NCBI GenBank assembly: GCA_046331155.1
Contig: JAXLRK010000001.1
Location: forward strand, 1,029,335-1,093,334
From: Acidimicrobiia bacterium
GTDB taxonomy: Bacteria > Actinomycetota > Acidimicrobiia > IMCC26256 > CAWATG01
Reading direction: 5' to 3'
Length of the DNA stretch: 64,000 nt
Each line of letters starts with the position of its first letter. Position 1 is the stretch's first letter. Positions 1 through 60,618 of the stretch are shown piece by piece. The notes under the pieces are model-generated. The model worked only from the letters and a program-made list of their open reading frames with translations. It did no database searches and was not told the origin of the DNA. The position numbers were made by a program, and so were the translations under genes.

Positions 1-328
1 CTACGACGCGTACTACGGCCAGGCGCAACGAGTGCGGACGCTCATCATCCGCGATTTCTCGCGCGCCTACGAGCGTTTCGACGTGCTGCTGTCGCCGACG
101 TCGCCGACGACCGCGTTCGAGCTCGGCGCGAAGACCGCCGACCCCCTCGCGATGTACCTCTCCGACGTCTGCACGATCCCGACGAACCTGGCCGGTCATC
201 CCGCGGTGTCGGTGCCGTTCGGCGTCGCGGGCGACGGCCTGCCGATCGGGGTCCAGGTGCTGGCGCCCACGCTCGGGGAGCGAGTGATGTTCCGCGTGGC
301 CCGGGCGATCGAGCTGGGAGCCCAGTGA
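1..328 (+). CDS. gatA: Glu-tRNA(Gln)/Asp-tRNA(Asn) amidotransferase subunit A, C-terminal fragment (gene starts upstream of window)
   Basis: Frame is open from the window edge. Translation [19 protein letters not shown]...[16 protein letters not shown]...[18 protein letters not shown] is the conserved GatA C-terminus, and gatB follows. Confidence 0.9.
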
Positions 329-426
329 GCGAGCGTGGGGAGGCGGGTATCCCGCCGAGCAGCGAGCGTGGCCTGCCGGCCCGGCGCCGCAGGCGCCAGG
401 AGGCAAGACAGGAGGCAATGGCGTGA
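325..426 (+). repeat. Intercistronic repeat element, family A copy 1, with 33-codon mini-ORF ([33 protein letters not shown])
   Basis: GTG 325-327 overlaps the gatA TGA 326-328 (GTGA). The mini-ORF TGA 424-426 overlaps the gatB GTG 423-425 (GTGA). Near-identical copies lie at 24921-25004 (+) and 59390-59479 (-). Hairpins GGCGGG-TAT-CCCGCC and GGCGCC-GCA-GGCGCC are present, and AGGAGG sits at the 3' end. Confidence 0.85.
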
Positions 427-1900: not shown

Positions 1901-2884
1901 CTACGACATCGCCTGCTGCAACAGCCCGCTCTCACCGGTCAGCGCGACCCGGTCGACCAGGCCGCCGTACCGCTCCTGGGCGGCGTCCGCGATGGTGGCG
2001 CGGGTCCCGCGGACGGCGAACGCGTCGATCATGTCTTCGGGTACCAGGCGCACCATCTCGGGCCAGCGCCCTTCCTTGGATAGCCGGTTGAGCTCCGGGT
2101 GGAGCTCTCCCCAGCCCATGACGTCGAGCACCGGCGCGTACGCAGGCGTCGAGCCGTAGAAAGCGATGCGGCTGCGGATGTCGCGCTCGGCGGCCGCGGT
2201 CTCCTCGTCGGTGTCGCCGATGACGGTCATGGTCGGGAACGCGATCTCGAACCCGTCGCGAGCCCCGCCGGCCGCGGCGTGCCCGCGTTCCAGGGCCGGC
2301 CGGATGTGCTCCCGGAGGTAGCGCTCGGTACAGAACGGGTGCACGAGGAAACCGTCGGCCACCTCGCCGGCCACCTCGGTCATGCGGGGGCCGACACCGG
2401 CGAGCCAGATGCGGGCTCGGCCGTACGGGTTGGGGCCGGGGTCGAAGAACGGGGTCATCAGCGTGTGGCGGTAGAACTCTCCTTCGAACCGCAGCGGGGT
2501 ACCGTCCTGCCAGGCATCCCAGATGGCGCGGATCGCCTGGGTCATCTCGCGCATCCGGGCCGCCGGGTGCGACCAGGGCATCGAGAACCGCCGCTCGATG
2601 TGCGGCCGGATCTGCGAGCCGAGCCCCAACACGAACCGGCCCTTCGAGAGCAGCTGCAGGTCGTAGCCGATGTTGGCCAGCGTCATCGGGTTGCGTGCGA
2701 ACGCGACCGCGATCGCGGTGGCGAGGTCGATCCGCTCGGTGTGCTCGGCCGCCAGCGCGAGCGGGAAGAAGGGGTCGTGCGGGCCCTCGAAGGTGAACAC
2801 GCCGTCGTACCCGGCGTCCTCGACCTCGCGGGCGTTGCGGGCGGCGTCGGGGAGCGCACCGAGCAGCGGGGCGTCGAACTTCAC
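1901..2884 (-). CDS. LLM-class (luciferase-like) F420-dependent oxidoreductase
   Basis: 327 aa with a GTG start. The luciferase-like TIM-barrel pattern ([27 protein letters not shown]) resembles the TIGR03617-type family; this assignment is from memory. Confidence 0.8.
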
Positions 2885-2971: not shown

Positions 2972-4648
2972 ATGTCCGAGATGAAGCCGCGCAGCCGTGA
3001 CGTGACCGACGGGATGGAGCGGGCGCCGGCCCGAGCCATGCTCCGGGCCGTCGGGATGACCGACGCCGACTGGGGCAAGCCCCAGGTGGGCGTGGCGTCG
3101 AGCTGGAACGAGGTCACGCCCTGCAACCTGCCCCTCGACCGGCTCGCCAAGCGGGCGAAGGTGGGCGTGCGCGACGCGGGCGGGTTCCCGATCGAGTTCG
3201 TGACGATCGCGGTGAGCGACGGCATCGCGATGGGCCACGAAGGGATGCGCGGCTCGCTCGTGAGCCGCGAGATCATCGCCGACTCCGTGGAGTGCGTCAT
3301 GCACTCCGAGCGGCTCGACGCGCTCGTGAGCTTCGCCGGCTGCGACAAGTCGCTGCCGGGAATGCTCATGGCCGCGGCGCGGCTCAACCTCCCGTCGGTG
3401 TTCCTCTACGGCGGGTCGATCCTGCCGGGCCACTACAAGGACCAGACGCTCGACATCGTGAGCGTGTTCGAGGCCGTCGGCGCGTGCGCGGCCGGCACGC
3501 TCAGCGAGAACGAGCTCGGCGAGATCGAGATGCGGGCGTGCCCGACCGAGGGGTCGTGCGCCGGGATGTTCACCGCGAACACCATGGCTTCGGTCAGCGA
3601 GGCGTTGGGGATGGCGCTGCCCGGGAGCGCGTCGCCGCCGGCACCGGACCGTCGCCGCGACGACTTCGCGTACGAGTCGGGCCGCGCGGTCGTGCGCCTC
3701 CTGGAGCTGGACCTCCGGCCCCGGCAGATCATGACGAAGCACGCGTTCGAGAACGCGATCGCGGTCGTGATGGCGCTCGGCGGTTCGACGAACGCGGTCC
3801 TGCACCTGCTGGCGATCGCCAACGAGGCCCACGTCGAGCTCGAGCTCGACGACTTCAACCGCATCGGGGCGCGCGTCCCGCACCTCGCCGACACGAAGCC
3901 GCACGGCAAGTACCACATGACCGACGTCGACCGCATCGGTGGCGTGCCCGTGGTCATGGCGCATCTCTTGGAGGCCGGCTTGCTGCACGGCGACGTGCTG
4001 ACGGTCACCGGCAGGACGATGGCCGAGAACCTCGCCGAGCTCGCGCCGCCCGCACCGGACGGCGACGTGCTCCACCCGTTGTCGGCGCCGATCCACGCGC
4101 AGGGAGGGTTGGCGATCCTCACCGGCTCGCTCGCGCCCAACGGCTCGGTGGTCAAGATCGCGGGTCTCGACACGACGCACTTCGAGGGCACGGCGCGAGT
4201 GTTCGACGGCGAGGACCTCGCCATGGAGGCGATCCTCGCCGAGCACATCGACCCGGGCGACGTGCTCGTCATCCGCTACGAGGGCCCGAAGGGCGGTCCC
4301 GGGATGCGCGAGATGCTCGCGGTCACCGGAGCGCTCAAGGGTGTCGGGCGAGGCGCGGACACGGCGCTGATCACCGACGGCCGATTCTCGGGTGGGACCC
4401 ACGGATTCTGCGTCGGGCACGTCGCGCCCGAGGCCGTCGACGGCGGGCCGATCGCATTCGTCGCCGACGGTGACCGCATCGTGATCGACGCGGTCGAGCA
4501 CACGATCGACCTTCTCGTCGACGACGCCGAGCTCGCTCGGCGCCGTGACGGCTGGAAGCCGCGCGAACCGCGGTACACGAGCGGCTTCCTCGCGAAGTAC
4601 GCGCGCCTCGCGCAGGGCGCGGAGCGAGGCGCGATCACCAACCTGTAG
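2972..4648 (+). CDS. ilvD: Dihydroxy-acid dehydratase
   Basis: Motifs [27 protein letters not shown] and [10 protein letters not shown]. Start taken at ATG 2972; an in-frame ATG at 2963 is also possible. The longer track ORF from 2099 is antisense to the LLM gene. Confidence 0.93.
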
Positions 4649-4651
4649 CCC

Positions 4652-5440
4652 ATGCCGGAGATCCTCGAGGTCGAGCTGTCGAGACGGTTGCTCGAGGCGC
4701 ATGCGCTCGGACGCCGGATCACCGCGGTCGACGCTCCCGACGCGTGGTACCTGAAGCGCGGGCTCGACGCGGGCACCGTGCGCGACGCGCTCGTCGGCTC
4801 GCGGTTCGTCGCGGCACGCCGGCGCGGCAAGCTCCTGCTGCTCGACACCGATCGCGGTGGCCCGGTGCTGGGTCTGCACTTCGGGATGACGGGCCGCGTC
4901 TTCGTCGACGACCGTGCCGCGCACGACCGCCTCTACTACCTCGACCGTGAACCCGACCCCGCGTGGGACCGGTTCGTCGTGCAATTCGGTGCCCGCGGCG
5001 AGCTCCGCCTCAGCGACCCGCGCCGCCTGGGCGCGGTCGAGCTGGACCCCGACGAGGACCGCCTGGGCATCGACGCGTTCGCGCTCACGCGGGCGCAGGT
5101 CGCCGCGATCGTCCGTGCCAGTCGTGCGCCGCTCAAGGCCGTCCTCCTGGACCAGGCTCGGGTGGCCGGCCTCGGCAACCTCCTGGTGGACGAGATCCTC
5201 TGGCGGGCCGGAATCGACCCCGCCCGACCGGCCCGATCGCTCGACGACACCGAGACCGCGGCGTTGGCCCGCGCCGTGCGGGAGACGCTGCGGGTGCTCG
5301 GCCGGCGAGGCGGCAGCCACACCGGCGACCTCATGGAGCAACGGGTGCCCGGCGGCGTGTGCCCGCGTGACGGGGCGCCCCTCACCCGACGGACCGTGGG
5401 CGGGCGGACGACCTACTCCTGCCCGGTGCACCAGCGCTGA
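4652..5440 (+). CDS. Fpg/Nei-family DNA glycosylase/AP lyase
   Basis: 262 aa. The N-terminal MPEILEVE is the catalytic Pro2/Glu3 type. An H2TH region (LLDQARVAGLGNLLVDEILW) and a C-terminal zinc finger (C..C...CPVH) are present. The gene starts 3 nt after the ilvD stop. Confidence 0.85.
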   Translation: MPEILEVELSRRLLEAHALGRRITAVDAPDAWYLKRGLDAGTVRDALVGSRFVAARRRGKLLLLDTDRGGPVLGLHFGMTGRVFVDDRAAHDRLYYLDREPDPAWDRFVVQFGARGELRLSDPRRLGAVELDPDEDRLGIDAFALTRAQVAAIVRASRAPLKAVLLDQARVAGLGNLLVDEILWRAGIDPARPARSLDDTETAALARAVRETLRVLGRRGGSHTGDLMEQRVPGGVCPRDGAPLTRRTVGGRTTYSCPVHQR

Positions 5441-20408: not shown

Positions 20409-23400
20409 TCAGCGCCGGAACCGCAGCCCGCGTGGGACATCCTGGAATCCGGCGGCACGCAGCGGCTCGGCGAGGGGCGACTCGCGGGCGGGCGTACCGT
20501 CGACGTGGCGCAGCTCGAGCGTGCGGATGCGTCCGTCCTTCACGAGCCCGGTCAGCGCATCGATCCACGCGGCCGGCTCGACGGTCGACGGGAAGGTCAG
20601 GAGGGTGCGCCCGCCGCGTTCGAGGAAGGCGACGAGCTCGCCGTCGACCATGACCACCGACGCGCCCGCGGCCCGCGCCGGGCGCCCCGGCGACTCCGGC
20701 CAGGCGAGTGCGGACCCGTAGGGCTGGGCCGGGTCCGTGGCCGCGAGGACGAGGACCGACGGGTGTTCGCGCTCGGGTGCGCGTTCGGCGCGCAAGCGGT
20801 CGACGGCACCGGGCAGTGCGAACTGCGCGGCGCCGAGGCCGGCGACGAAGTAGCCGCGCCGCGCCCGCCCCGACTCCTCGAGCGCGCGCAGCACGCCGTA
20901 CACGCCGGCGAACCCGCCGGGGGTCGCTTCCGCGCGTACCGCTTCGCGGGTCACCACGCCGTGACGCTCGAGCATCTGGACGGCCCGGGCGTGCGCGCGC
21001 TCGGTGTCGCCCGGCTCGGGGACGCGCAGCGGTGCCACGAGCGACCACCGGCCTTGCCCTGCGGGGGGTCCGAGGCGCGTGAGCCGGCCCGGGCGCGGCC
21101 GGCCCCGCGGCGCGCGTGGCCGGCCGGCGAGGCGGGCGCGCACGGGCGCGAACGAGTCGTTGGTGACCTCACCGGACCAGGCGAGCTCCCAGAGCGCGTC
21201 GAGCAGGACGCGGTCGTCGTGCTGTCCGGTGGCCGCGACGAGGTCGAGCCAGAACGACGCGCCGCGCGCCGCGAGGTGCTCGCGGATCGCGTCGACCACC
21301 GGCCCGGAGGGTGGGTCGGCGGCCGGAACCGGTGCGGGCGCGAGGAGGCGGGCCCGGTCGCGGAAGACGAGGGCGACGCGCCCGTCGGTCGCGCCGATGG
21401 CGCCGGCGCCGATCCACACGACCTCACCGCCCGCGCAGAGCGCGTCGAGGTCGGCGCTGCGATACGGCGCGAGCCTCGAAGCGAGCACGTCGACCTCGAG
21501 GGACGAGGCCGGGAGAGGGATCCCTTCGAGCCGGCCGATCACGTCGACCAGGCCTTCGGGCCCGCGACGGTCGGAGCCGACGCCCTGCCAGGCGGGGAGG
21601 AAACGAGCGTACGTCGCCGGGTCGACGGGCTCGATCTCGTGGCGGAGCGCGGCGAGCGAACGCCGCCGCAACGAGCGGAGCACCTCGGGGTCGCACCACT
21701 CCCGTTCCGCTCCCCCGGGCCGGAACTCGCCCTGGACCACGCGGCCGGCCGACTCCAGGTCGATCAGCACCCGGCGGACCACGTCTGCTTCGACGCCGAA
21801 GCGACGGGCCGGCTCGTCGGTCGTGAACGGGACGTGCGTGCGCGCGTACCGGGCGACCAGGTCGCGCATCGGGGCGTCGACCGGGTCGGTGAACACCGAG
21901 GGGAGTCCGGGTGGGATCGCGACGCCCAGCGCGTCGCGGTAGCGGGCCGCGTCGTCGACCGCGATCACGCGGCGCTCGCCCGCGATCGAGGTCCGCAACG
22001 CCCTGCGGTCGGCGACGAGCTCGTCTATCCAGTCGCCCGGCGGGTCGCAGGACCGGGCGGCGAGGTCGGAATCGGAGAGGTCGCCGAGCGTGCGGAGGAG
22101 ATCGTGCAGGTCGTCGGCATGACGGGCCCGGCGTGACGACGTGAGGTGCTGGAGGTCGAGCTCGAGGTCCGCGAGCGCCGACGGGTCGATGAGCTCGCGC
22201 AGCTCCTCCGCACCGAGCAGGTCGCGCAGCAGGTCGCGGTCGAGCGAGAGCGCGGCTGCGCGTCGCTCGGCGAGGGGTGCGTCACCCTCGTACATGTAGT
22301 TCGCGATCCAGCCGAACAGCAGCGACTGCGCGAACGGGGACGCGGTGCGGGTCTCGACCGGGACCATGCGGATTCGTCGCGCCCGAAGGTCCGTCATCAC
22401 CTCGCGCAGCGCGGGCACGTCGAACACGTCACGCAGGCACTCACGCGTCGTCTCGAGGAGGATCGGAAACGTCGGGTACCGCGCCGCGACCTCGAGCAGG
22501 TCCGCGGCGCGCTGGCGCTGCTGCCAGAGCGGTGTCCGCTGGCCCGGCCGGCGGCGGGGGAGGAGCAGGGCGCGGGCCGCGGCCTCGCGGAACCGGGCCG
22601 CGAAGAGTGCCGTCGCCGGGAGCTGTTCGACCACGAGCTCGTCGACGTCCTCCGGTTCGATCACGAGGTCGTCGGTGGGGATGGACTCGACGGACTCCGG
22701 GAGGCGGAGCACGATGCCGTCGTCGCTCCACAGCACCTGCACCGCGCTGTCGAACCGTTGCGCGAGCCGGGCTTCGATGGCCAGCGCCCACGGTGCGTGC
22801 ACCCGGGAGCCGAACGGCGAGAGGATGCACACCCGCCAGTCGCCGATCTCGTCCGGGAACCGTTCGACGACGATGGTGCGGTCGTCGGGCACGACGCCGG
22901 TGGCCGCGGCCTGCTCGTCGAGGTACGACAGCACGTTGCGCGCCGCGAGGTCGTCGAGGCAGCTTCGTTCGTGCAGAAGCGCCTGCGCCTGCACGGGCGA
23001 AGCGTGGCGCAGCTCGCGCAAGGTCGCGCCGAGCGCACGGCCGAGCTCGAGCGGCCGGCCGGGCTTGTCGCCGTGCCAGAACGGCATCCGGGCCGGTTCG
23101 CCGGGCGCGGGCACGACGATCACGCGGTCGTGGGTGATCTGGTCGATGCGCCACGTCGACGCGCCGAGCGTGAACGCCTCGCCGGGTCGGCTCTCGTACA
23201 CCATCTCCTCGTCGAGCTCGCCGACGCGGGTGCCGTCGGGAAGGAACACGCCGAACAGCCCGCGGTCGGGGATGGTGCCACCGTTGGTGATGGCGATCCG
23301 CTGGGCGCCCTCGCGGGCGCGCACGCGACCGTGCACCCGGTCCCACACGACGCGCGGACGCAACTCGGCGAAGTCGTCCGACGGGTACCGACCGGACAGG

Positions 23401-24881
23401 AGGTCGAGGACCGCGCTGAAGGTGTCGTCGGTGAGGTCGGCGAAGTTCGCGCTGCGGCGGACGAGCGCCAGCAGGTCGTCGACCGCCCACTCGTCGACCG
23501 CGCAGGCGGCCACGATCTGTTGTGCGAGCACGTCGAGCGGGTTGCGCGGGTAACGGGTCTCCTCGACGAGCCCGTCGCGCATCCGTGCGGTGACGACCGC
23601 GGCCTCGACGAGGTCGCCCCGGTACTTCGGGAAGATCGTGCCGCGGCTGGGCTCGCCCACGTGATGGCCGGCGCGGCCGATGCGCTGAAGGCCGCGGGCG
23701 ACCGATCCGGGGGACTCGACCTGGATCACGAGGTCGACCGTGCCCATGTCGATGCCGAGCTCGAGCGAGCTGGTGGCGACGAGCGCCCGCAACCGGCCGA
23801 CCTTGAGGTCGTCCTCGATCTGCAGCCGCTGCTCGCGCGCCAGCGACCCGTGGTGGGCGCGCACGAGGTCGGGCTTCCCGGTGCCGGGGCCGCAGCCGGC
23901 CAGCTCGTTGAGTCGGGCGGCCAGGCGTTCGGCGAGACGGCGGGCGTTGACGAAGATCAGCGTCGTGCGGTGGGACTCGATGAGCTCGAGGATCCGTGGG
24001 TGTACGTGGGGCCAGATGCTCGCCCGCGCTTCGCCGGGTACGGCCCCGCTGCCGGTGGGCGGTTCGTGGGTGCCGAGCTCGCCGAGGTCCTCGACGGGGA
24101 CGACCACGTCGAGGTCGAGGGGCTTGCGGGCGCCGGCGTCGACGATCGTGACCGGTCGTGGACCCGCCGCGGTCATCCCGCCCAGGAACCGGGCGATCTC
24201 GTCGAGTGGTCGTTGGGTGGCCGACAGGCCGATGCGCTGCGGTGGGCGGCGCGTGATGGCTTCGAGCCGCTCGAGGCTGAGCGAGAGGTGCGCGCCGCGT
24301 TTCGTGCCGGCCACCGCGTGGATCTCGTCGACGACGACGCATTCGACGGAGCGGAGGAGCTCGCGCGCCTGTGAGGTGAGCATGAGGTAGAGGGACTCGG
24401 GGGTCGTGATGAGGATGTCGGGTGGGGTGCGCAACATCCGCTGGCGGTCCCGCGACGGCGTGTCGCCGGTGCGCATCCCGACGGTCGGTTCGTGCCCGGC
24501 CGGGTCGAGCCCGAGCCGGTCCGCGGCCAGCCGGATACCGGTGAGCGGAGCGCGCAGGTTCTTCTCCACGTCGACCGCGAGGGCCTTGAGCGGCGACACG
24601 TACAGCACGCGGCAGCGGTCGGCCTTGGCCGGGACCGGTTGCGTGATCAGCCGGTCGATCGCCCAGAGGAACGCCGCCAGCGTCTTACCGGAGCCGGTCG
24701 GGGCCAGGAGGAGGGTGTGGTCGCCGCGGGCGATCGGGGGCCAGCCCGCGGCCTGAGCGTCGGTCGGCGCGGGGAACGACGTCTCGAACCAGGCGGCGAC
24801 GGGCGGGGAGAAGCGGTCGAGCCCCACCGCGCAACGGTACCCCGCCTCGAGAGGTGGCGATCTTCGTGGTCTCGCGTTCAT
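20409..24881 (-). CDS. lhr: Lhr-family ATP-dependent DNA/RNA helicase (large helicase-related protein)
   Basis: 1490 aa. Walker A APTGSGKT, DEIH box (VVVDEIHAV), helicase C motifs, and a long C-terminal extension typical of Lhr. The start could be slightly downstream. Confidence 0.93.
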   Translation of the reverse strand: MNARPRRSPPLEAGYRCAVGLDRFSPPVAAWFETSFPAPTDAQAAGWPPIARGDHTLLLAPTGSGKTLAAFLWAIDRLITQPVPAKADRCRVLYVSPLKALAVDVEKNLRAPLTGIRLAADRLGLDPAGHEPTVGMRTGDTPSRDRQRMLRTPPDILITTPESLYLMLTSQARELLRSVECVVVDEIHAVAGTKRGAHLSLSLERLEAITRRPPQRIGLSATQRPLDEIARFLGGMTAAGPRPVTIVDAGARKPLDLDVVVPVEDLGELGTHEPPTGSGAVPGEARASIWPHVHPRILELIESHRTTLIFVNARRLAERLAARLNELAGCGPGTGKPDLVRAHHGSLAREQRLQIEDDLKVGRLRALVATSSLELGIDMGTVDLVIQVESPGSVARGLQRIGRAGHHVGEPSRGTIFPKYRGDLVEAAVVTARMRDGLVEETRYPRNPLDVLAQQIVAACAVDEWAVDDLLALVRRSANFADLTDDTFSAVLDLLSGRYPSDDFAELRPRVVWDRVHGRVRAREGAQRIAITNGGTIPDRGLFGVFLPDGTRVGELDEEMVYESRPGEAFTLGASTWRIDQITHDRVIVVPAPGEPARMPFWHGDKPGRPLELGRALGATLRELRHASPVQAQALLHERSCLDDLAARNVLSYLDEQAAATGVVPDDRTIVVERFPDEIGDWRVCILSPFGSRVHAPWALAIEARLAQRFDSAVQVLWSDDGIVLRLPESVESIPTDDLVIEPEDVDELVVEQLPATALFAARFREAAARALLLPRRRPGQRTPLWQQRQRAADLLEVAARYPTFPILLETTRECLRDVFDVPALREVMTDLRARRIRMVPVETRTASPFAQSLLFGWIANYMYEGDAPLAERRAAALSLDRDLLRDLLGAEELRELIDPSALADLELDLQHLTSSRRARHADDLHDLLRTLGDLSDSDLAARSCDPPGDWIDELVADRRALRTSIAGERRVIAVDDAARYRDALGVAIPPGLPSVFTDPVDAPMRDLVARYARTHVPFTTDEPARRFGVEADVVRRVLIDLESAGRVVQGEFRPGGAEREWCDPEVLRSLRRRSLAALRHEIEPVDPATYARFLPAWQGVGSDRRGPEGLVDVIGRLEGIPLPASSLEVDVLASRLAPYRSADLDALCAGGEVVWIGAGAIGATDGRVALVFRDRARLLAPAPVPAADPPSGPVVDAIREHLAARGASFWLDLVAATGQHDDRVLLDALWELAWSGEVTNDSFAPVRARLAGRPRAPRGRPRPGRLTRLGPPAGQGRWSLVAPLRVPEPGDTERAHARAVQMLERHGVVTREAVRAEATPGGFAGVYGVLRALEESGRARRGYFVAGLGAAQFALPGAVDRLRAERAPEREHPSVLVLAATDPAQPYGSALAWPESPGRPARAAGASVVMVDGELVAFLERGGRTLLTFPSTVEPAAWIDALTGLVKDGRIRTLELRHVDGTPARESPLAEPLRAAGFQDVPRGLRFRR

Positions 24882-24920
24882 GTCGCTGCCTCTTGGGGGC
24901 CGGTCGGTACCATCCGGCGC

Positions 24921-25004
24921 GTGAGTGAGCGTCGGGAGGCGGGTATCCTGCCGAGCAGCGAGCGTGGCCCAGCGGCCCGGCGCCGAAGGCGCCAGGAGCG
25001 GTAG
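24921..25004 (+). repeat. Repeat element, family A copy 2 (27-codon mini-ORF VSERREAGILPSSERGPAARRRRRQER)
   Basis: Aligns end to end with 325-426 and 59390-59479. It lies in the divergent lhr/acyltransferase intergenic region. TAG 25002-25004 ends 2 nt before the acyltransferase GTG 25007, and a GGAG motif lies at its 3' end. Confidence 0.85.
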
Positions 25005-25006
25005 GC

Positions 25007-26122
25007 GTGGAGACCACCGAGCCTCGACCGACCGTGGAGCGGTTCCGGCTCGGCTACCGGCCCGCGCTCGACGGCATCCGCGGCGTCTCCGTGCTCGCCG
25101 TCATGGCCTACCACGTCGGGCTGTCGTGGATGAGCGGTGGATTCCTCGGCGTCGACGCGTTCTTCGTGCTGTCCGGTTTCCTCATCACGAGCCTGCTCCT
25201 CGAGGAATGGCACGACCGGGGCCGGATCAACCTCCGCAACTTCTACGCGCGCCGCCTCTTGCGGTTGACACCTGCGCTGCTGCTCGTGCTCGCGGTCGTG
25301 GGCAGCTACGCGGTGTTCCTCGAGCGCGGTGCGGTACGCGACGCGATCTACCCGGAGGCCGCGTCGACGATCCTGTACTCGGCGAACTGGTTCGCGGCGA
25401 CGGGATCGCAGTTCCCCTTCCATCTCGCGCACACCTGGTCGCTCGCGATCGAGGAACAGTTCTACCTGGTGTGGCCGCTGGCGGTCGTCGCCATCCTCTC
25501 GTGGTCGGGCCGGGTGCGCTCACTGCTGTGGACGACCGTGGGCATCGCGTGCGCATCGGCGTTGCTCATGCCGATGATGACGGGCTTCGGCGATCACCGC
25601 GTCGAGCGCGCCTACTTCGGGACCGACACCCGCGCCCAGTCCCTTCTGATCGGTTGTGCCATCGCGTGCGTGGCCTTCCTCGGCGATCTCCCGCGTTCGA
25701 CCGCGGCCGTTGCGAGGGTCCGTGCCGGTGCCGTGGCCTCGGCCGTGTTCGTCGTCGGGCTGTGGGTCCTGCTGGACGGCACGGGCAGCGCGTTCCTCTT
25801 CGCGGGTGGATTCGCCCTCGAGGGCCTCGCCGTGGGCGTGATCGTCGTGCACGTGCTGCTCGAGCCCGGCGCGCCGATCCCGCGGGCCCTCGCAGCCCGT
25901 TCCGCCCGCTGGGTCGGCCGGATCTCGTACGGCCTGTACCTCTGGCACTGGCCGGTCTTCACCGTGGTCGACCGGTGGGGCCTGGCCTTCTGGCCGGGCG
26001 TGGTCGTGAAGTTCGCCCTGACGTTCGGGTTCGCGACCGCCTCCTTCTACGGGTTGGAGCAGCCGGTCCTGGCCCTGAAGCGCCGGTTCCGTGGTGCGGG
26101 CTCGGGCCGGTCCGCTCCGTGA
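25007..26122 (+). CDS. Acyltransferase family 3 (OafA/YrhL-type membrane O-acyltransferase)
   Basis: 371 aa. LDGIRGVSVLAVMAYH...GVDAFFVLSGFLIT signature; polytopic. Confidence 0.9.
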   Translation: METTEPRPTVERFRLGYRPALDGIRGVSVLAVMAYHVGLSWMSGGFLGVDAFFVLSGFLITSLLLEEWHDRGRINLRNFYARRLLRLTPALLLVLAVVGSYAVFLERGAVRDAIYPEAASTILYSANWFAATGSQFPFHLAHTWSLAIEEQFYLVWPLAVVAILSWSGRVRSLLWTTVGIACASALLMPMMTGFGDHRVERAYFGTDTRAQSLLIGCAIACVAFLGDLPRSTAAVARVRAGAVASAVFVVGLWVLLDGTGSAFLFAGGFALEGLAVGVIVVHVLLEPGAPIPRALAARSARWVGRISYGLYLWHWPVFTVVDRWGLAFWPGVVVKFALTFGFATASFYGLEQPVLALKRRFRGAGSGRSAP

Positions 26123-56370: not shown

Positions 56371-57026
56371 CGGCTCCTCCCGAACTCGGGCTGGACGGCG
56401 AGCACGGTGCCGCGCTCCAGGGACACGGACGCCCTCGGCGCCGCGAGCTCGTTGCTGATCCCGCGAGTGGACCCGGGTTCGAGCACCGCGCCGTCGAGCG
56501 CGAAACGCAGACCGATGGTGCGCACGCCGCGCGCCGGGCCGCCGACGGCGAGCAGCGAGCAGAGATCGCCCACCGCACCCGTGAGGTCGACCGGGAATCC
56601 CGGCCGCGCGACGGCGAGCCGCGCGTCGCCCACGTATGCCTCGATCGCGAGGTGTGCGAACGCCGGCGCACTCAGGACCAGCGCGTTGGCCAGGAGGTGG
56701 TCGAGGCGCCCACCGGCCCCGCCCACGACGACCACCCTGCGCGCTCCCCGAGCCGACGCCTCGAGGAGCGCGAGCTCGAGGTCGGTGTGGTCCTTGTCGA
56801 CCGGGTGGCGCACGGTTGTCGTGCCGCTCCGTTCGGCGCGCGCGACCGCCGCCGGGTCGGCCGAGTCGAGGTCGCCCACGAGGACGTCGACGGTCAGGCC
56901 GAGAGGCCCGGCGTTGGCGAGCCCGGAGTCGGCCGCGACGACGACCGACGGTTCGGGCAGGAACGAGCGAAGTGTCGGACTTGCCGGATCTCCTCCGGCG
57001 AGCACGACCGCGGTGGGTACGGCCAT
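56367..57026 (-). CDS. thiN: Thiamine pyrophosphokinase
   Basis: 219 aa from ATG 57026 (GGAGGGAGGA SD). VLAGGD...GDLDS...HPVDKDHTDLELAL...GGAGGRLDH motifs. The upstream ATG 57047 lies inside the riboswitch core. Confidence 0.85.
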   Translation of the reverse strand: MAVPTAVVLAGGDPASPTLRSFLPEPSVVVAADSGLANAGPLGLTVDVLVGDLDSADPAAVARAERSGTTTVRHPVDKDHTDLELALLEASARGARRVVVVGGAGGRLDHLLANALVLSAPAFAHLAIEAYVGDARLAVARPGFPVDLTGAVGDLCSLLAVGGPARGVRTIGLRFALDGAVLEPGSTRGISNELAAPRASVSLERGTVLAVQPEFGRSR

Positions 57027-57029
57027 GGT

Positions 57030-57115
57030 TCCTCCCTCCGCTGGCATTACCCAGTGCAGGTTCAGCGGGTCGGTGACGGATCGCGGTCACCCTCTCAGCC
57101 CGGCGCCCCGAGCTC
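57030..57115 (-). promoter_or_regulatory. TPP (THI-box) riboswitch
   Basis: The minus-strand read is GGGGCGCCGGGCUGAGAGGGUGACCGCGAUCCGUCACCGACCCGCUGAACCUGCACUGGGUAAUGCCAGCGGAGGGAGG. It contains the conserved CUGAGA, ACCC..UGAACCUG and UAAUGCCAGCG blocks. Its 3' end contains the SD of thiN. Confidence 0.9.
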
Positions 57116-57180
57116 CCCGAAACGGTCGACCCGTCAGGGTACCGGCGCCCGCCCGCTGCCGCCCGTCGCGGGTCGGTCGT

Positions 57181-58190: not shown

Positions 58191-59393
58191 TCAGCGCGTC
58201 GCCCCCAGCGCGGCGAGCGCGGTGCCCACGAGCACACGGATCCCGACGCCGATGGCGCGCTCGTCCACGTCGAACGTGCTCGCGTGGAGGTCGAGCTTGG
58301 GTCCGTCGGACGACGGGTCGTGCACACCGAGCCGCGCGTAGGAGCCGGCGACCGCGTCGAGGTACCACGAGAAGTCGTCGCCGCCTGCGCTCTGCTCGGT
58401 GGGGACCACCTGGTCGCCACCGAGCACGCGGCGGGCGGTGGTCGCGAGCAGCTCCGTTGCGGCCGGGTCGTTCACCACGGGCGGAACGCCGGGCGAGTGG
58501 TGCACTTCCACGGTGGCGCCGAACGGCGTCGCCATCTCCGAGAGCAGCTCCTGGACGAGCGCGGGTGCGACCCGCCAGGTGTCGTGGTCCGGCGCCCGCA
58601 AGGTGCCCCGCAACACCGCCAGCGACGGGATGACGTTGGCGGCGCCGCCTGCGTGGATCGCGCCGAACACGAGGTTGGGCTCGCCGGGCGAGCAACGCTC
58701 GCGCAGTCGGGTCGGGAGCTCCGCGGCGATGCGACCGGCGACGGCGACGAGGTCGGCGGTCCGGTGCGGTCGGGCCGTGTGCCCGCCGGGCCCGTGCAAC
58801 CGAACCTCGAGCAAGTCGGAGGCCGACGTGATGGCCCCGGCGCGCACGCCCAGGTACCCGACGTCGAGCTTCGGATCGCAGTGCAGGCCGAAGATCCAGT
58901 CGACGTCGGCGAGCCCGCCGTCGGCGATGACGTCCACCGCACCGCCGGGCGCAGTCTCCTCGGCGGGCTGGAAGATCAGGCGGATCCGCCCCGACGCGCG
59001 CGAGCCGGCGGGGTCGTCGCCGGCGAGGCGCGCGAGCGCGAGCCCGGCCCCGAGGACGACGGTCGTGTGGACGTCGTGCCCGCAGGCGTGCGCGAGGCCC
59101 GGTACCTGCGACCGGTAGTGGACGGTCTTCTCGTCGTCCATGGCGAGCGCGTCGATGTCGGCGCGCAGAGCGACCGTCGGGCCGTGACCGTCGCCGACGA
59201 CGATGTCGCACAACAGCCCCGTCCCGCTCGCGAGCACGCGAAGGGGCAGCCCGGCGACGTCGAGTCTCGCGGCGACGAGCTCCGTGGTCTCGTGCTCGGC
59301 GCCGCTGCGCTCGGGGTGGGCGTGGAGATGGCGCCGGAACGCGATCAGCTCCTCGCCGTGGGCGTCGAGGAACGTGTCGAGGGGCTTACTCAA
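58191..59393 (-). CDS. M20-family amidohydrolase (N-acyl-L-amino acid amidohydrolase/hippurate hydrolase type)
   Basis: 400 aa from TTG 59393 (AGGAGG lies 6 nt upstream). FRRHLHAHPE, ALRADIDAL, HACGHD and FQPAEE motifs. The track ORF extension to 59561 runs through the repeat element. Confidence 0.88.
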   Translation of the reverse strand: MSKPLDTFLDAHGEELIAFRRHLHAHPERSGAEHETTELVAARLDVAGLPLRVLASGTGLLCDIVVGDGHGPTVALRADIDALAMDDEKTVHYRSQVPGLAHACGHDVHTTVVLGAGLALARLAGDDPAGSRASGRIRLIFQPAEETAPGGAVDVIADGGLADVDWIFGLHCDPKLDVGYLGVRAGAITSASDLLEVRLHGPGGHTARPHRTADLVAVAGRIAAELPTRLRERCSPGEPNLVFGAIHAGGAANVIPSLAVLRGTLRAPDHDTWRVAPALVQELLSEMATPFGATVEVHHSPGVPPVVNDPAATELLATTARRVLGGDQVVPTEQSAGGDDFSWYLDAVAGSYARLGVHDPSSDGPKLDLHASTFDVDERAIGVGIRVLVGTALAALGATR

Positions 59394-59479
59394 CCTCTTG
59401 CCTCCTGGCGCCTGCGGCGCCGGGCCGGCAGGCCACGCTCGCTGCTCGGCGGGATACCCGCCTCCCGACGCTCGCTCAT
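59390..59479 (-). repeat. Intercistronic repeat element, family A copy 3 (29-codon mini-ORF MSERREAGIPPSSERGLPARRRRRQEARG)
   Basis: On the minus strand, ATG 59479-59477 overlaps the GCS2 TGA 59478-59476 (ATGA). Its TGA 59392-59390 overlaps the amidohydrolase TTG 59393-59391 (TTGA). It is nearly identical to 325-426. Confidence 0.85.
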
Positions 59480-60618
59480 GCCGGCTCCGCTTCGTCGTGT
59501 TCGAGCTCACGGACCAGATGGTGCACGATGTCCTCGGGCGAACCGCCGCGGTCGACGACACGCCGCTGGCGCGCGTAGCTCGGCCCGGTTCCGAGGATCC
59601 GTTCGACGTCGTGGAGCTCGTCGAGACAACCGAGCGACTCGGCTGCGGGTTCGAGCTCGGCGACGAGCTCGCGCACGAGCTCGATCGTCGGCCGGCTCGA
59701 CCCGCGGTCGTCGACGATGAGGGAACCGTCGATGCCGTGGCGCGTCGCGAGCCACTTGTTCTCGCGTACGACCCACTCGCGCACGGTGGGAAGCGGCGCG
59801 CCCGCGTCGAGACGCGCGTCGAACGTGTGGACGAGGCTCTGCGCGACGGCCGCGAGGGCCATGGCCTCGCGGATCGTCGGGATCCCGTCGCACATCCGGA
59901 ACTCCACGGTCCCGAAGTCGGGGTGGGGGCGGATGTCCCACCAGACCTCGCGGATCGACTTGATCGCCTGCGCGTTCACGAGCGTCTCCATGAACGCCTC
60001 GAAGTCCTCCCAGCCGGCCAGCCGGTGGGGAAGCCCGGCGGTCGGCAGCCCCTCGAACACCTTGGTGCGGCAGGAGGCGAGGCCGGTGTCGTGGCCCTGC
60101 CAGTACGGGCTCGACGCCGAGAGCGCGAGCAGGTGCGGGAGGTAGGTGGTGAGCGCGTTGGCGATGGCCACGGCCTTCTCGCCGGAGCGGACGCCCACGT
60201 GGTAGTGGACACCGAAGATCTGCAGGCGCTGGGCGGTCCACTGCATCTGCTCGACCAACTCGATGTACCGCGCTTTCGGGCTCACGATCTGGTCGCGCCA
60301 CTGCGAGAACGGGTGCGTCCCGACGCAGATCAGCGCGAGGCCGCGCCGGGCCGCCGCGTCCGCGATCTCGCGGAGCGTGGTGCTGATGTCGGCATGGGCC
60401 TCGGCCGGCGTGGACGTGATGCCGGTGATGACCTCGATCGTGCACTCGAAGAGCTCGTGCTTGGCCTTCGGGTGCTCGCCCCCCGGATGGCCGGCGCCGA
60501 TCTCGCGGAGAATGTCGGATCCGACGCTCGCGAGCACGCCTGTCGCCCGGTCGACGAGTGCGAACTCCATCTCCACCCCGAGGGTGGCCCGCTCGGAGCG
60601 GTGGAAGTCGATGCGCAC
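59476..60618 (-). CDS. Carboxylate-amine ligase, glutamate-cysteine ligase family 2 (YbdK-like)
   Basis: 380 aa from GTG 60618 (GAGGAGG SD). LGVEMEFALVD, HELFECTIE, GTHPF and SSPYW motifs. Confidence 0.88.
   Translation of the reverse strand: MRIDFHRSERATLGVEMEFALVDRATGVLASVGSDILREIGAGHPGGEHPKAKHELFECTIEVITGITSTPAEAHADISTTLREIADAAARRGLALICVGTHPFSQWRDQIVSPKARYIELVEQMQWTAQRLQIFGVHYHVGVRSGEKAVAIANALTTYLPHLLALSASSPYWQGHDTGLASCRTKVFEGLPTAGLPHRLAGWEDFEAFMETLVNAQAIKSIREVWWDIRPHPDFGTVEFRMCDGIPTIREAMALAAVAQSLVHTFDARLDAGAPLPTVREWVVRENKWLATRHGIDGSLIVDDRGSSRPTIELVRELVAELEPAAESLGCLDELHDVERILGTGPSYARQRRVVDRGGSPEDIVHHLVRELEHDEAEPA

Follow-up and report, generated by a model that had tools for sequence, protein, structure and literature searches.

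What lies between gatA and gatB in an Acidimicrobiia bacterium, and how would a ribosome that has finished one gene reach the next? In the 64,000-nt stretch analysed here (the window; contig JAXLRK010000001.1, positions 1,029,335 to 1,093,334, from a metagenome-assembled genome, or MAG), an original prediction had described the gatA-gatB spacer as one copy of a dispersed repeat resembling the interspersed repetitive units of mycobacteria (MIRUs), with a mini open reading frame (ORF) locked onto both neighbouring genes. Judging from the copies in the window and in other genomes, we consider it likely that the element is an Acidimicrobiia-specific dispersed repeat, mobile now or formerly, that sits within RTGA stop/start overlaps (R being A or G) and relays ribosomes through its mini-ORF to the next gene.

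Three copies in the window

The copies and their mini-ORFs are located as follows.

325..422, plus strand: copy 1, 98 nt (86 nt plus a 12-nt internal duplication), the gatA/gatB spacer, starting with the G of the first GTGA and ending one base ahead of the gatB GTG
325..426, plus strand: mini-ORF of copy 1, 33 codons (33 amino acids), GTG...TGA, taken from the ORF list
24921..25006, plus strand: copy 2, 86 nt, in the divergent region that separates the minus-strand gene for an Lhr-like helicase from an acyltransferase-3 gene
59394..59479, minus strand: copy 3, 86 nt, between genes for a GCS2/YbdK-like carboxylate-amine ligase and an M20 amidohydrolase
59390-59479, minus strand: mini-ORF of copy 3, 29 codons, overlapping both neighbouring genes

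When aligned, the three copies are near-identical across ~80 nt and their flanking sequences are unrelated. A 36-nt core matches the window three times with at most one mismatch, against none expected from 100 shuffles, which bears out the claim that the spacer belongs to a dispersed element and places the other copies where they had been predicted. A relaxed profile search of the window for degenerate copies found nothing beyond these three. Each copy is oriented in the sense direction of the gene that it precedes, again as had been proposed.

In copy 1, the TGA stop codon of gatA (326-328) lies within GTGA 325-328, and the mini-ORF stop (TGA 424-426) forms a second GTGA with the gatB start (GTG 423-425). 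The two overlaps are thus correct base by base, and the NCBI annotation of the same MAG holds a 485-residue GatB (P0001, 100% identity) with the same start. The original prediction had called the repeat intercistronic and described GTGA overlaps at the gatA and gatB junctions; for the other copies the picture is mixed. Copy 3 is locked at both ends, with ATGA upstream (59479-59476, containing the stop codon of the ligase gene) and TTGA downstream, where the amidohydrolase starts at TTG 59393-59391, a start identical in the NCBI annotation (P0121). Copy 2 is not locked: its ORF (24921-25004) closes at TAG 25002-25004, 2 nt ahead of the GTG at 25007 with which the acyltransferase-3 gene starts, neither end overlaps a gene, and there is no same-strand gene upstream, the helicase gene (20409..24881) being on the minus strand across a divergent promoter region. 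A scan for sigma-70 promoters and terminators around copy 2 gave no match and no terminator-like T-run. The hexamer TACCAT stands 7 nt upstream of the GTG that follows copy 2; a leaderless transcript could be read from these letters, and we do not claim one.

Orientation, phase and empty sites

To place the window copies within their family, we scanned species-representative genomes with an exact 24-nt core pattern, a procedure by which divergent copies are not sampled. The core was present in 94 stretches from 30 MAG assemblies, and a profile built from the window copies resolved 128 units in 104 arrays within the scanned stretches. Units of the type seen in the window, which begin with TGAGCGAGCG, make up the long form, with the consensus nTGAGCGAGCGTCGSGAGGCGGGTATCCCGCCGAGCAGCGAGCGKGGCCCGAGCGGCCCGGCGCCGNAGGCGCCRRGAGCGGGAAnnRTGA. 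The analysis of junctions rests on 48 long-form arrays with complete 5′ ends, for which the flanking frames were called with a stop-free GC3>GC1>GC2 heuristic, not with a trained gene finder.

Neither the orientation of these arrays nor their placement relative to stop and start codons was random. The downstream gene was co-oriented with the element in all 35 arrays in which it could be classified, and opposite in none. Upstream, the gene ended exactly at the element TGA in 28 arrays; in 3 it shared the strand but used another frame, and in 4 it lay on the opposite strand. Of the 28 arrays in which it ended there, 27 had A or G as the base before the TGA (position 1). In 25 of the 48, the element lies between two clear genes of its own strand and its TGA ends the upstream one.

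In 21 units, the next [AGT]TGA lies 86 nt from position 1. For copies in clear operon context, the distances from position 1 to the next RTGA were distributed as follows.

86 nt: 17 cases, 3n+2
89 nt: 3 cases, 3n+2
98 nt: 1 case, 3n+2
84 nt: 1 case, off phase
85 nt: 1 case, off phase

The distance is therefore of the form 3n+2 in 21 of the 23 measurable single-copy operon cases. Because 86 equals 3n+2, an ORF opened by the RTG at the upstream stop codon closes on a TGA that overlaps the downstream RTG, the result being 29 codons and a −4 overlap on either side. Nearly every operon copy contains an ORF that has a start codon, and in the large majority of these copies the stop of that ORF overlaps the start of the downstream gene. 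Further links are found in some arrays: in L036, which consists of two 86-nt units, a chain of three re-initiations is possible, and L001 and L071 hold an extra ATGA-chained ORF of 6-7 codons.

The length is kept in spite of internal change. Among 86-nt units, the lengths of successive segments form the sets (18,27,28,13), (18,27,29,12), (17,27,29,13) and (17,27,28,14), each of which sums to 86. The compensated 1-nt insertions and deletions switch the central frame between subfamilies, such that one reads EAGIPPSSERG where another reads RGGYPAEQRAW, and the C-terminal third differs as well. Conservation thus acts on the nucleotide sequence and on total length, not on the protein; an unconserved peptide of fixed length is as expected if only the in-phase passage of ribosomes matters.

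Ribosome-binding motifs are placed in keeping with such passage. Of 28 operon copies, 15, among them window copies 1 and 3, have an SD-like (Shine-Dalgarno-like) tetramer at −16 to −4 relative to the start of the mini-ORF, as against 5/28 and 0/28 in control windows, and an SD-like motif precedes the downstream start in 17 of 25. We read this as the mini-ORF inheriting the old ribosome-binding site within the upstream gene and the element bringing a new one for the displaced gene.

Relatives that lack the element show what its sites look like when empty. A metagenome scan with the GatB N-terminus returned 80 relatives at no more than 82% identity, 69 of them with an adjacent gatA; none of these 69 carries the element, and in 36 the two genes overlap by exactly 4 nt (ATGA/GTGA). 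The closest GatB relatives in the protein database, L175 (87%) and L176 (86%), likewise have a 4-nt gatA-gatB overlap consisting of a single ATGA. Aligned at this site, the relatives read …GCGCC ATGA CCGATTGGGAG… and …GCGCA ATGA CTGCGTGGGAA…, and the window reads …AGCCCA GTGA (94 nt) GTGA CTGACTGGGAG…. At the site of copy 3, a relative at 82% identity (L178) reads …GAACC ATGA GCC… where the window has ATGA, the element and TTGA, and relatives at 70-71% have TGATG. A third pair is formed by L006, which is occupied, and L066, which is empty (GCGGCGTGAAG). Since plain ATGA overlaps are present in relatives at 82-87% protein identity, the two operon copies of the window, 1 and 3, are insertions. 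The loci of the closest relatives (L175-L177) contain no family copy and so do not inform the age of the family. Taken with the orientation, the TGA stops and the phase, the empty RTGA sites uphold the original idea of a sense-oriented repeat that would chain termination to re-initiation and supply the SD sequence itself.

The ends of the inserted units were compared for traces of the process. Of 30 single-copy units, 23 have identical bases ahead of the TGA at their two ends, where 17 would be expected (permutation p=0.0014); this match is confounded by start-codon selection and is compatible with an imperfect 4-nt NTGA target duplication. Terminal inverted repeats were not found: the inverted complementarity of the terminal 22 nt is 0.43, the same as in shuffles (0.43). 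At the gatA-gatB junction itself, the two genes are separated in L095, L096, L106 and L177 by a gene of ~0.9 kb for an alpha/beta-hydrolase on the opposite strand, which makes this junction a recurrent rearrangement site in the lineage.

Hairpins, short forms and carriers

Within copy 1, the internal parts named in the original prediction are all present.

342-356, plus strand: hairpin 1, GGCGGG-TAT-CCCGCC, between the two AGCGAGCGTGG direct repeats
328-338 and 361-371, plus strand: direct repeat AGCGAGCGTGG
370-381, plus strand: hairpin 2, GGCC-TGCC-GGCC
383-397, plus strand: hairpin 3, GGCGCC-GCA-GGCGCC, immediately 5′ of the SD sequence
397-420, plus strand: 12-nt tandem duplication, CAGGAGGCAAGA (397-408) / CAGGAGGCAATG (409-420)

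The duplication holds two AGGAGG SD motifs (398-403 and 410-415), the second of them 7 nt before the gatB GTG. It is private to copy 1 and, with 86+12=98, leaves the 3n+2 phase intact.

Base pairing was counted in an alignment of 31 sequences (A2; 81% mean column identity). Over the three hairpins together, 98.3% of cells are paired, compared with 28-56% when the partners are slid. The first hairpin is paired in 100% of cells, with one compensatory variant (L006), an invariance that is largely an artefact of a scan pattern covering that hairpin. The second is paired in 97.6% of cells and shows no covariation among the 31 sequences. In the third, by contrast with the second, compensatory double changes affect 4 of the 6 pairs (GC replaced by CG in 9 sequences, for instance), and the observed covariation was reached in 0 of 500 shuffles. 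Hairpin 3 may serve propagation of the element or a role at the RNA level. Predicted RNA folding of whole copies was not better than that of shuffled sequence (z −0.35 to −1.5). Rfam assigned the element to no family, the best E-values at permissive thresholds being 1.5-9, and a riboswitch or leader reading of the element was rejected, as was the reading of the family as chance GC-rich similarity.

The family also comprises a short form, which retains the 5′ half alone (hairpin 1) in a different 5′ and 3′ context and is found outside operons. It often occurs in head-to-tail tandems of 2-5 units with periods of 55, 60 or 62 nt, as in the following arrays.

L015 6707-6856: short-form array
L080 6866-7075: short-form array
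L068 4930-5215: short-form array
L023 6-171: short-form array
L063 3415-3511: short-form array

These are not CRISPR (clustered regularly interspaced short palindromic repeat) arrays, for the whole 55-62-nt unit repeats, the inter-repeat segment included. A conserved 5′ extension (…GAGCTCGCCGGAGCGGCGAGCGGC…) is common to many of the short-form copies that occur singly, and the short form is probably a separate element built on the hairpin-1 module. Tandem arrays of the long form comprise two units in L036, two in L032 and four in L072. At three loci, short-form copies lie ~5-12 nt from the 3′ end of a tRNA gene and antisense to it.

L007 4770-4812: short-form copy beside tRNA-Thr (4824-4898, minus strand)
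L034 3785-3872: short-form copy beside tRNA-SeC (3877-3971, minus strand)
L050 1860-1958: short-form copy beside tRNA-Ser (1965-2052, minus strand)

These tRNA-adjoining copies might be terminators or remnants at integration sites.

The carriers of the core are labelled Acidimicrobiia, Actinomycetes or Actinomycetota, except for two Bifidobacteriaceae, and are MAGs, mostly from soil, with some from freshwater. A plasmid collection searched with blastn in distant mode gave no match to the element. In the searchable literature, which leaves most subscription journals outside, we found no description of the core sequence or of such a repeat in Acidimicrobiia, so that the element family in this uncultured class is apparently undescribed so far. 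The gatA-gatB spacers of L110 (70 nt before position 2501), L132 and L162 also start with TGAGCGAGCG and are rich in GCGAGCG; they have no hairpin 1, were missed by the profile, and may be degenerate copies or belong to related element families.

Sites occupied in more than one genome allow the element to be compared with its surroundings. One such site is occupied in L010, L064 and L039, whose flanking proteins are 83-99% identical. The element there is 92-95% identical, and the identity at third codon positions in the downstream gene is 65-69% between L010 and L064/L039 and 91% within the close pair L064/L039. Such high identity at a shared site points to purifying selection, to gene conversion between copies or to repeated insertion, which are not separable here. 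At ~6150-6172 of L039 (minus strand), a 21-nt remnant resembles the 3′ end of a second copy (…GGGAGCAGGAGCGGAGAC); it continues the upstream gene in frame at its C-terminus and is absent from the 99%-identical orthologue in L064 (1490-1496). The remnant is evidence that arrays decay into coding sequence, and it is the only between-strain variation in copy number that was seen.

Around window copy 3, several further observations concern the neighbouring genes. The sole Rfam match at gathering level in the window is a thiamine pyrophosphate (TPP) riboswitch, which lies ~1 kb downstream of the amidohydrolase gene that follows this copy.

57015-57129, minus strand: TPP riboswitch (RF00059, 59.8 bits, above the gathering score)

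In the relatives L179 and L180, the amidohydrolase gene is followed by genes for thiamine pyrophosphokinase and the solute-binding component of an ABC transporter. Mechanically called ORFs at 58191-59561 (minus strand) and 24492-25004 (plus strand) read through copies 3 and 2, respectively, in other frames; the former yields a 456-residue version of the amidohydrolase with a 56-residue N-terminal extension. A database protein of 600 residues (P0129; PF01546 and PF04107) unites the GCS2/YbdK ligase and M20 amidohydrolase domains, and either is a genuine fusion or stems from gene calling that read through the very junction that copy 3 occupies in the window.

A proposed ribosome relay and its alternatives

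According to the reading that we favour, an 86-nt unit, measured from RTGA to RTGA, would land in the 4-nt RTGA stop/start overlap that joins two co-transcribed genes and so produce two NTGA junctions. The 5′ junction would still terminate the upstream gene, and its RTG, usually with the old ribosome-binding site still ahead of it, would open a 29-codon ORF through the element. At the 3′ junction the mini-ORF would end on the downstream start codon, 7-9 nt ahead of which lies an SD sequence that the element supplies (RRGAGSGG). Ribosomes leaving the upstream gene would then re-initiate twice, on the mini-ORF and on the downstream gene, such that translational coupling could survive the insertion while the translating ribosome melted the element hairpins. 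Translation of the mini-ORF is suggested by its phase, its overlaps and the SD-like motifs, and the phase rule probably reflects selection for coupling. As to how the element would move, its subterminal hairpins, fixed short target and lack of terminal inverted repeats make a single-strand (HUH/Y1-type) or an RNA-mediated route worth considering.

Several points weigh against the relay. The gene calls behind it are heuristic, and 13 of the 48 arrays are unclassifiable on each side. L072 breaks the length rule with four tandem 88-nt units and an alternative stop, in 5 cases (L004, L021, L032, L042-minus and L062b) the element ORF runs on in frame into the downstream gene, and copy 2 and ~10 further copies lie outside operon junctions. 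The constant 86 nt could in part reflect descent from 86-nt master copies, the argument from length compensation rests on four length configurations, and conservation at orthologous sites could equally stem from gene conversion or repeated insertion. Moreover, the loci were ascertained with an exact 24-mer, and divergent copies beyond its reach may behave differently.

Some of the same observations could be explained without a relay. If the element were a structured RNA or DNA module of the kind known from repetitive extragenic palindromic (REP) sequences and bacterial interspersed mosaic elements (BIMEs), its hairpins would stabilise the mRNA, provide a processing site or partly block transcription, thereby setting the ratio of upstream to downstream expression, and the ORF would be a by-product. 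The compensatory changes at 4 of the 6 pairs of hairpin 3 would fit, as would an element that is more conserved than neighbouring synonymous sites and a short form that carries the hairpin-1 half outside operons, into tandem arrays and past tRNA 3′ ends. However, whole copies fold no better than shuffles, have no terminator-like T-run and match no Rfam family; a mobile element would also need hairpins for its own propagation; and the 3n+2 rule, the RTGA at both ends and the 35:0 orientation are left unexplained. We regard a mainly structural role as unlikely, while noting that such a module is compatible with the relay and not exclusive of it.

It is also conceivable, and in our judgement improbable, that the repeat is purely selfish and its ORF never translated, so that the 86 nt and the RTGA ends reflect a master copy and a target preference with no selection for relaying. 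The close similarity of most copies agrees with this, a target duplication is compatible with NTGA at both ends, and open frames are common by chance in DNA of 70% GC. Yet four internal length configurations all arrive at 86, and variants of greater length (89 and 98) have gained 3 or 12 nt and so stay in phase. The A or G at position 1 in 27 of 28 copies and the enrichment of the SD-like motif ahead of the mini-ORF start also tell against it, and an untranslated, hairpin-bearing spacer of 82-94 nt would be expected to uncouple genes formerly joined by a −4 overlap. That the mini-ORF encodes a functional small protein (29-33 residues, Arg-rich) is, for its part, scarcely credible. The near-constant presence of an ORF with a start codon is what one would expect of a gene, whereas the amino acid sequence is unconserved between subfamilies in both the central frame and the C-terminal third, conservation is at the level of nucleotides and length, and dozens of paralogous copies per genome stand beside unrelated genes.

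The relay has a precedent in the MIRUs (Supply et al. 1997, as summarised in PMC12548453), which are described as mobile elements that insert at start codons and carry an ORF coupled at −4 spacing; a 2025 review (PMC12548453) states that this coupling “likely facilitates insertion with minimal impact”, and MIRU-type elements are the only natural case that it cites of a mobile repeat exploiting termination-reinitiation. Like them, the present element is a dispersed repeat of 40-100 nt (here 86 nt) between co-transcribed genes, shares the orientation of its flanking genes, holds a small ORF joined by 4-nt overlaps to the stop of the gene before it and to the start of the gene after it (in window copies 1 and 3, not in copy 2), appears to insert at start codons and occasionally forms head-to-tail arrays. 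It differs in its hosts, which are soil and freshwater Acidimicrobiia MAGs rather than Mycobacterium, in its fixed unit of 86 nt (3n+2) with three hairpins, its own SD sequence and a TGAGCGAGCG 5′ end, and in having a short-form relative at non-operon sites. The comparison, made with MIRUs as they are described, supports “MIRU-like” as a functional analogy rather than as membership of a sequence family.

Other systems match in part. In synthetic bicistronic design (BCD) cassettes, a concept cited in PMC12548453 (ref. 78), a leader ORF likewise contains the SD sequence, its stop overlaps the next start, and the elongating ribosome unfolds local structure and hands over; the present element, unlike these, is natural, repeated, apparently mobile and coupled to the upstream stop at its 5′ end as well. 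REP sequences and BIMEs (PMC2817692, on REP and RAYT transposases) resemble it as short, GC-rich intergenic repeats whose hairpins are conserved through compensatory changes, but REPs typically follow genes in alternating orientations, have no ORF or SD sequence and do not respect phase, whereas the element is strictly sense-oriented and phase-locked. With miniature inverted-repeat transposable elements (MITEs) and the palindrome-associated elements derived from IS200/IS605 insertion sequences, it shares a non-autonomous size, many copies and a short target (TGA/NTGA) at both ends, and its subterminal hairpins near both ends would, in our view, suit single-strand transposition. In contrast to MITEs, it has no terminal inverted repeats, and its putative 4-nt duplication is imperfect (23/30 units).

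More tentatively, we propose that the family is an independently evolved, sequence-unrelated counterpart of the MIRUs: a mobile “natural bicistronic-design cassette” that would target the TGA of RTGA overlaps, with its length selected at 3n+2, its peptide drifting, and a mode of movement that uses hairpins without terminal inverted repeats.

The principle has been known since 1997 from the MIRUs; what appears to be new is a widespread family in an uncultured class, with unusually clear comparative evidence that the phase, not the peptide, is maintained. MIRU-type elements have been recorded in a single genus, and how they move and behave in translation is still poorly understood. The present repeat would add a second family in a distant, uncultured actinobacterial class, with dozens of copies, 30 species-level genomes and clean empty sites, and the combination of length compensation and empty sites makes the question of selection on coupling answerable by comparative genomics. 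For operon engineering in high-GC hosts it also offers a compact natural part of 86 nt that brings an SD sequence and overlap junctions of its own. For annotation, the mini-ORFs and in-frame fusions can give wrong start calls and spurious N-terminal extensions in Acidimicrobiia MAGs. Should the family indeed be an independent counterpart of the MIRUs, stealth insertion into stop/start overlaps would be a recurrent strategy and not a mycobacterial oddity, and the family would provide a read-out, from sequence only, of the strength of selection on translational coupling.

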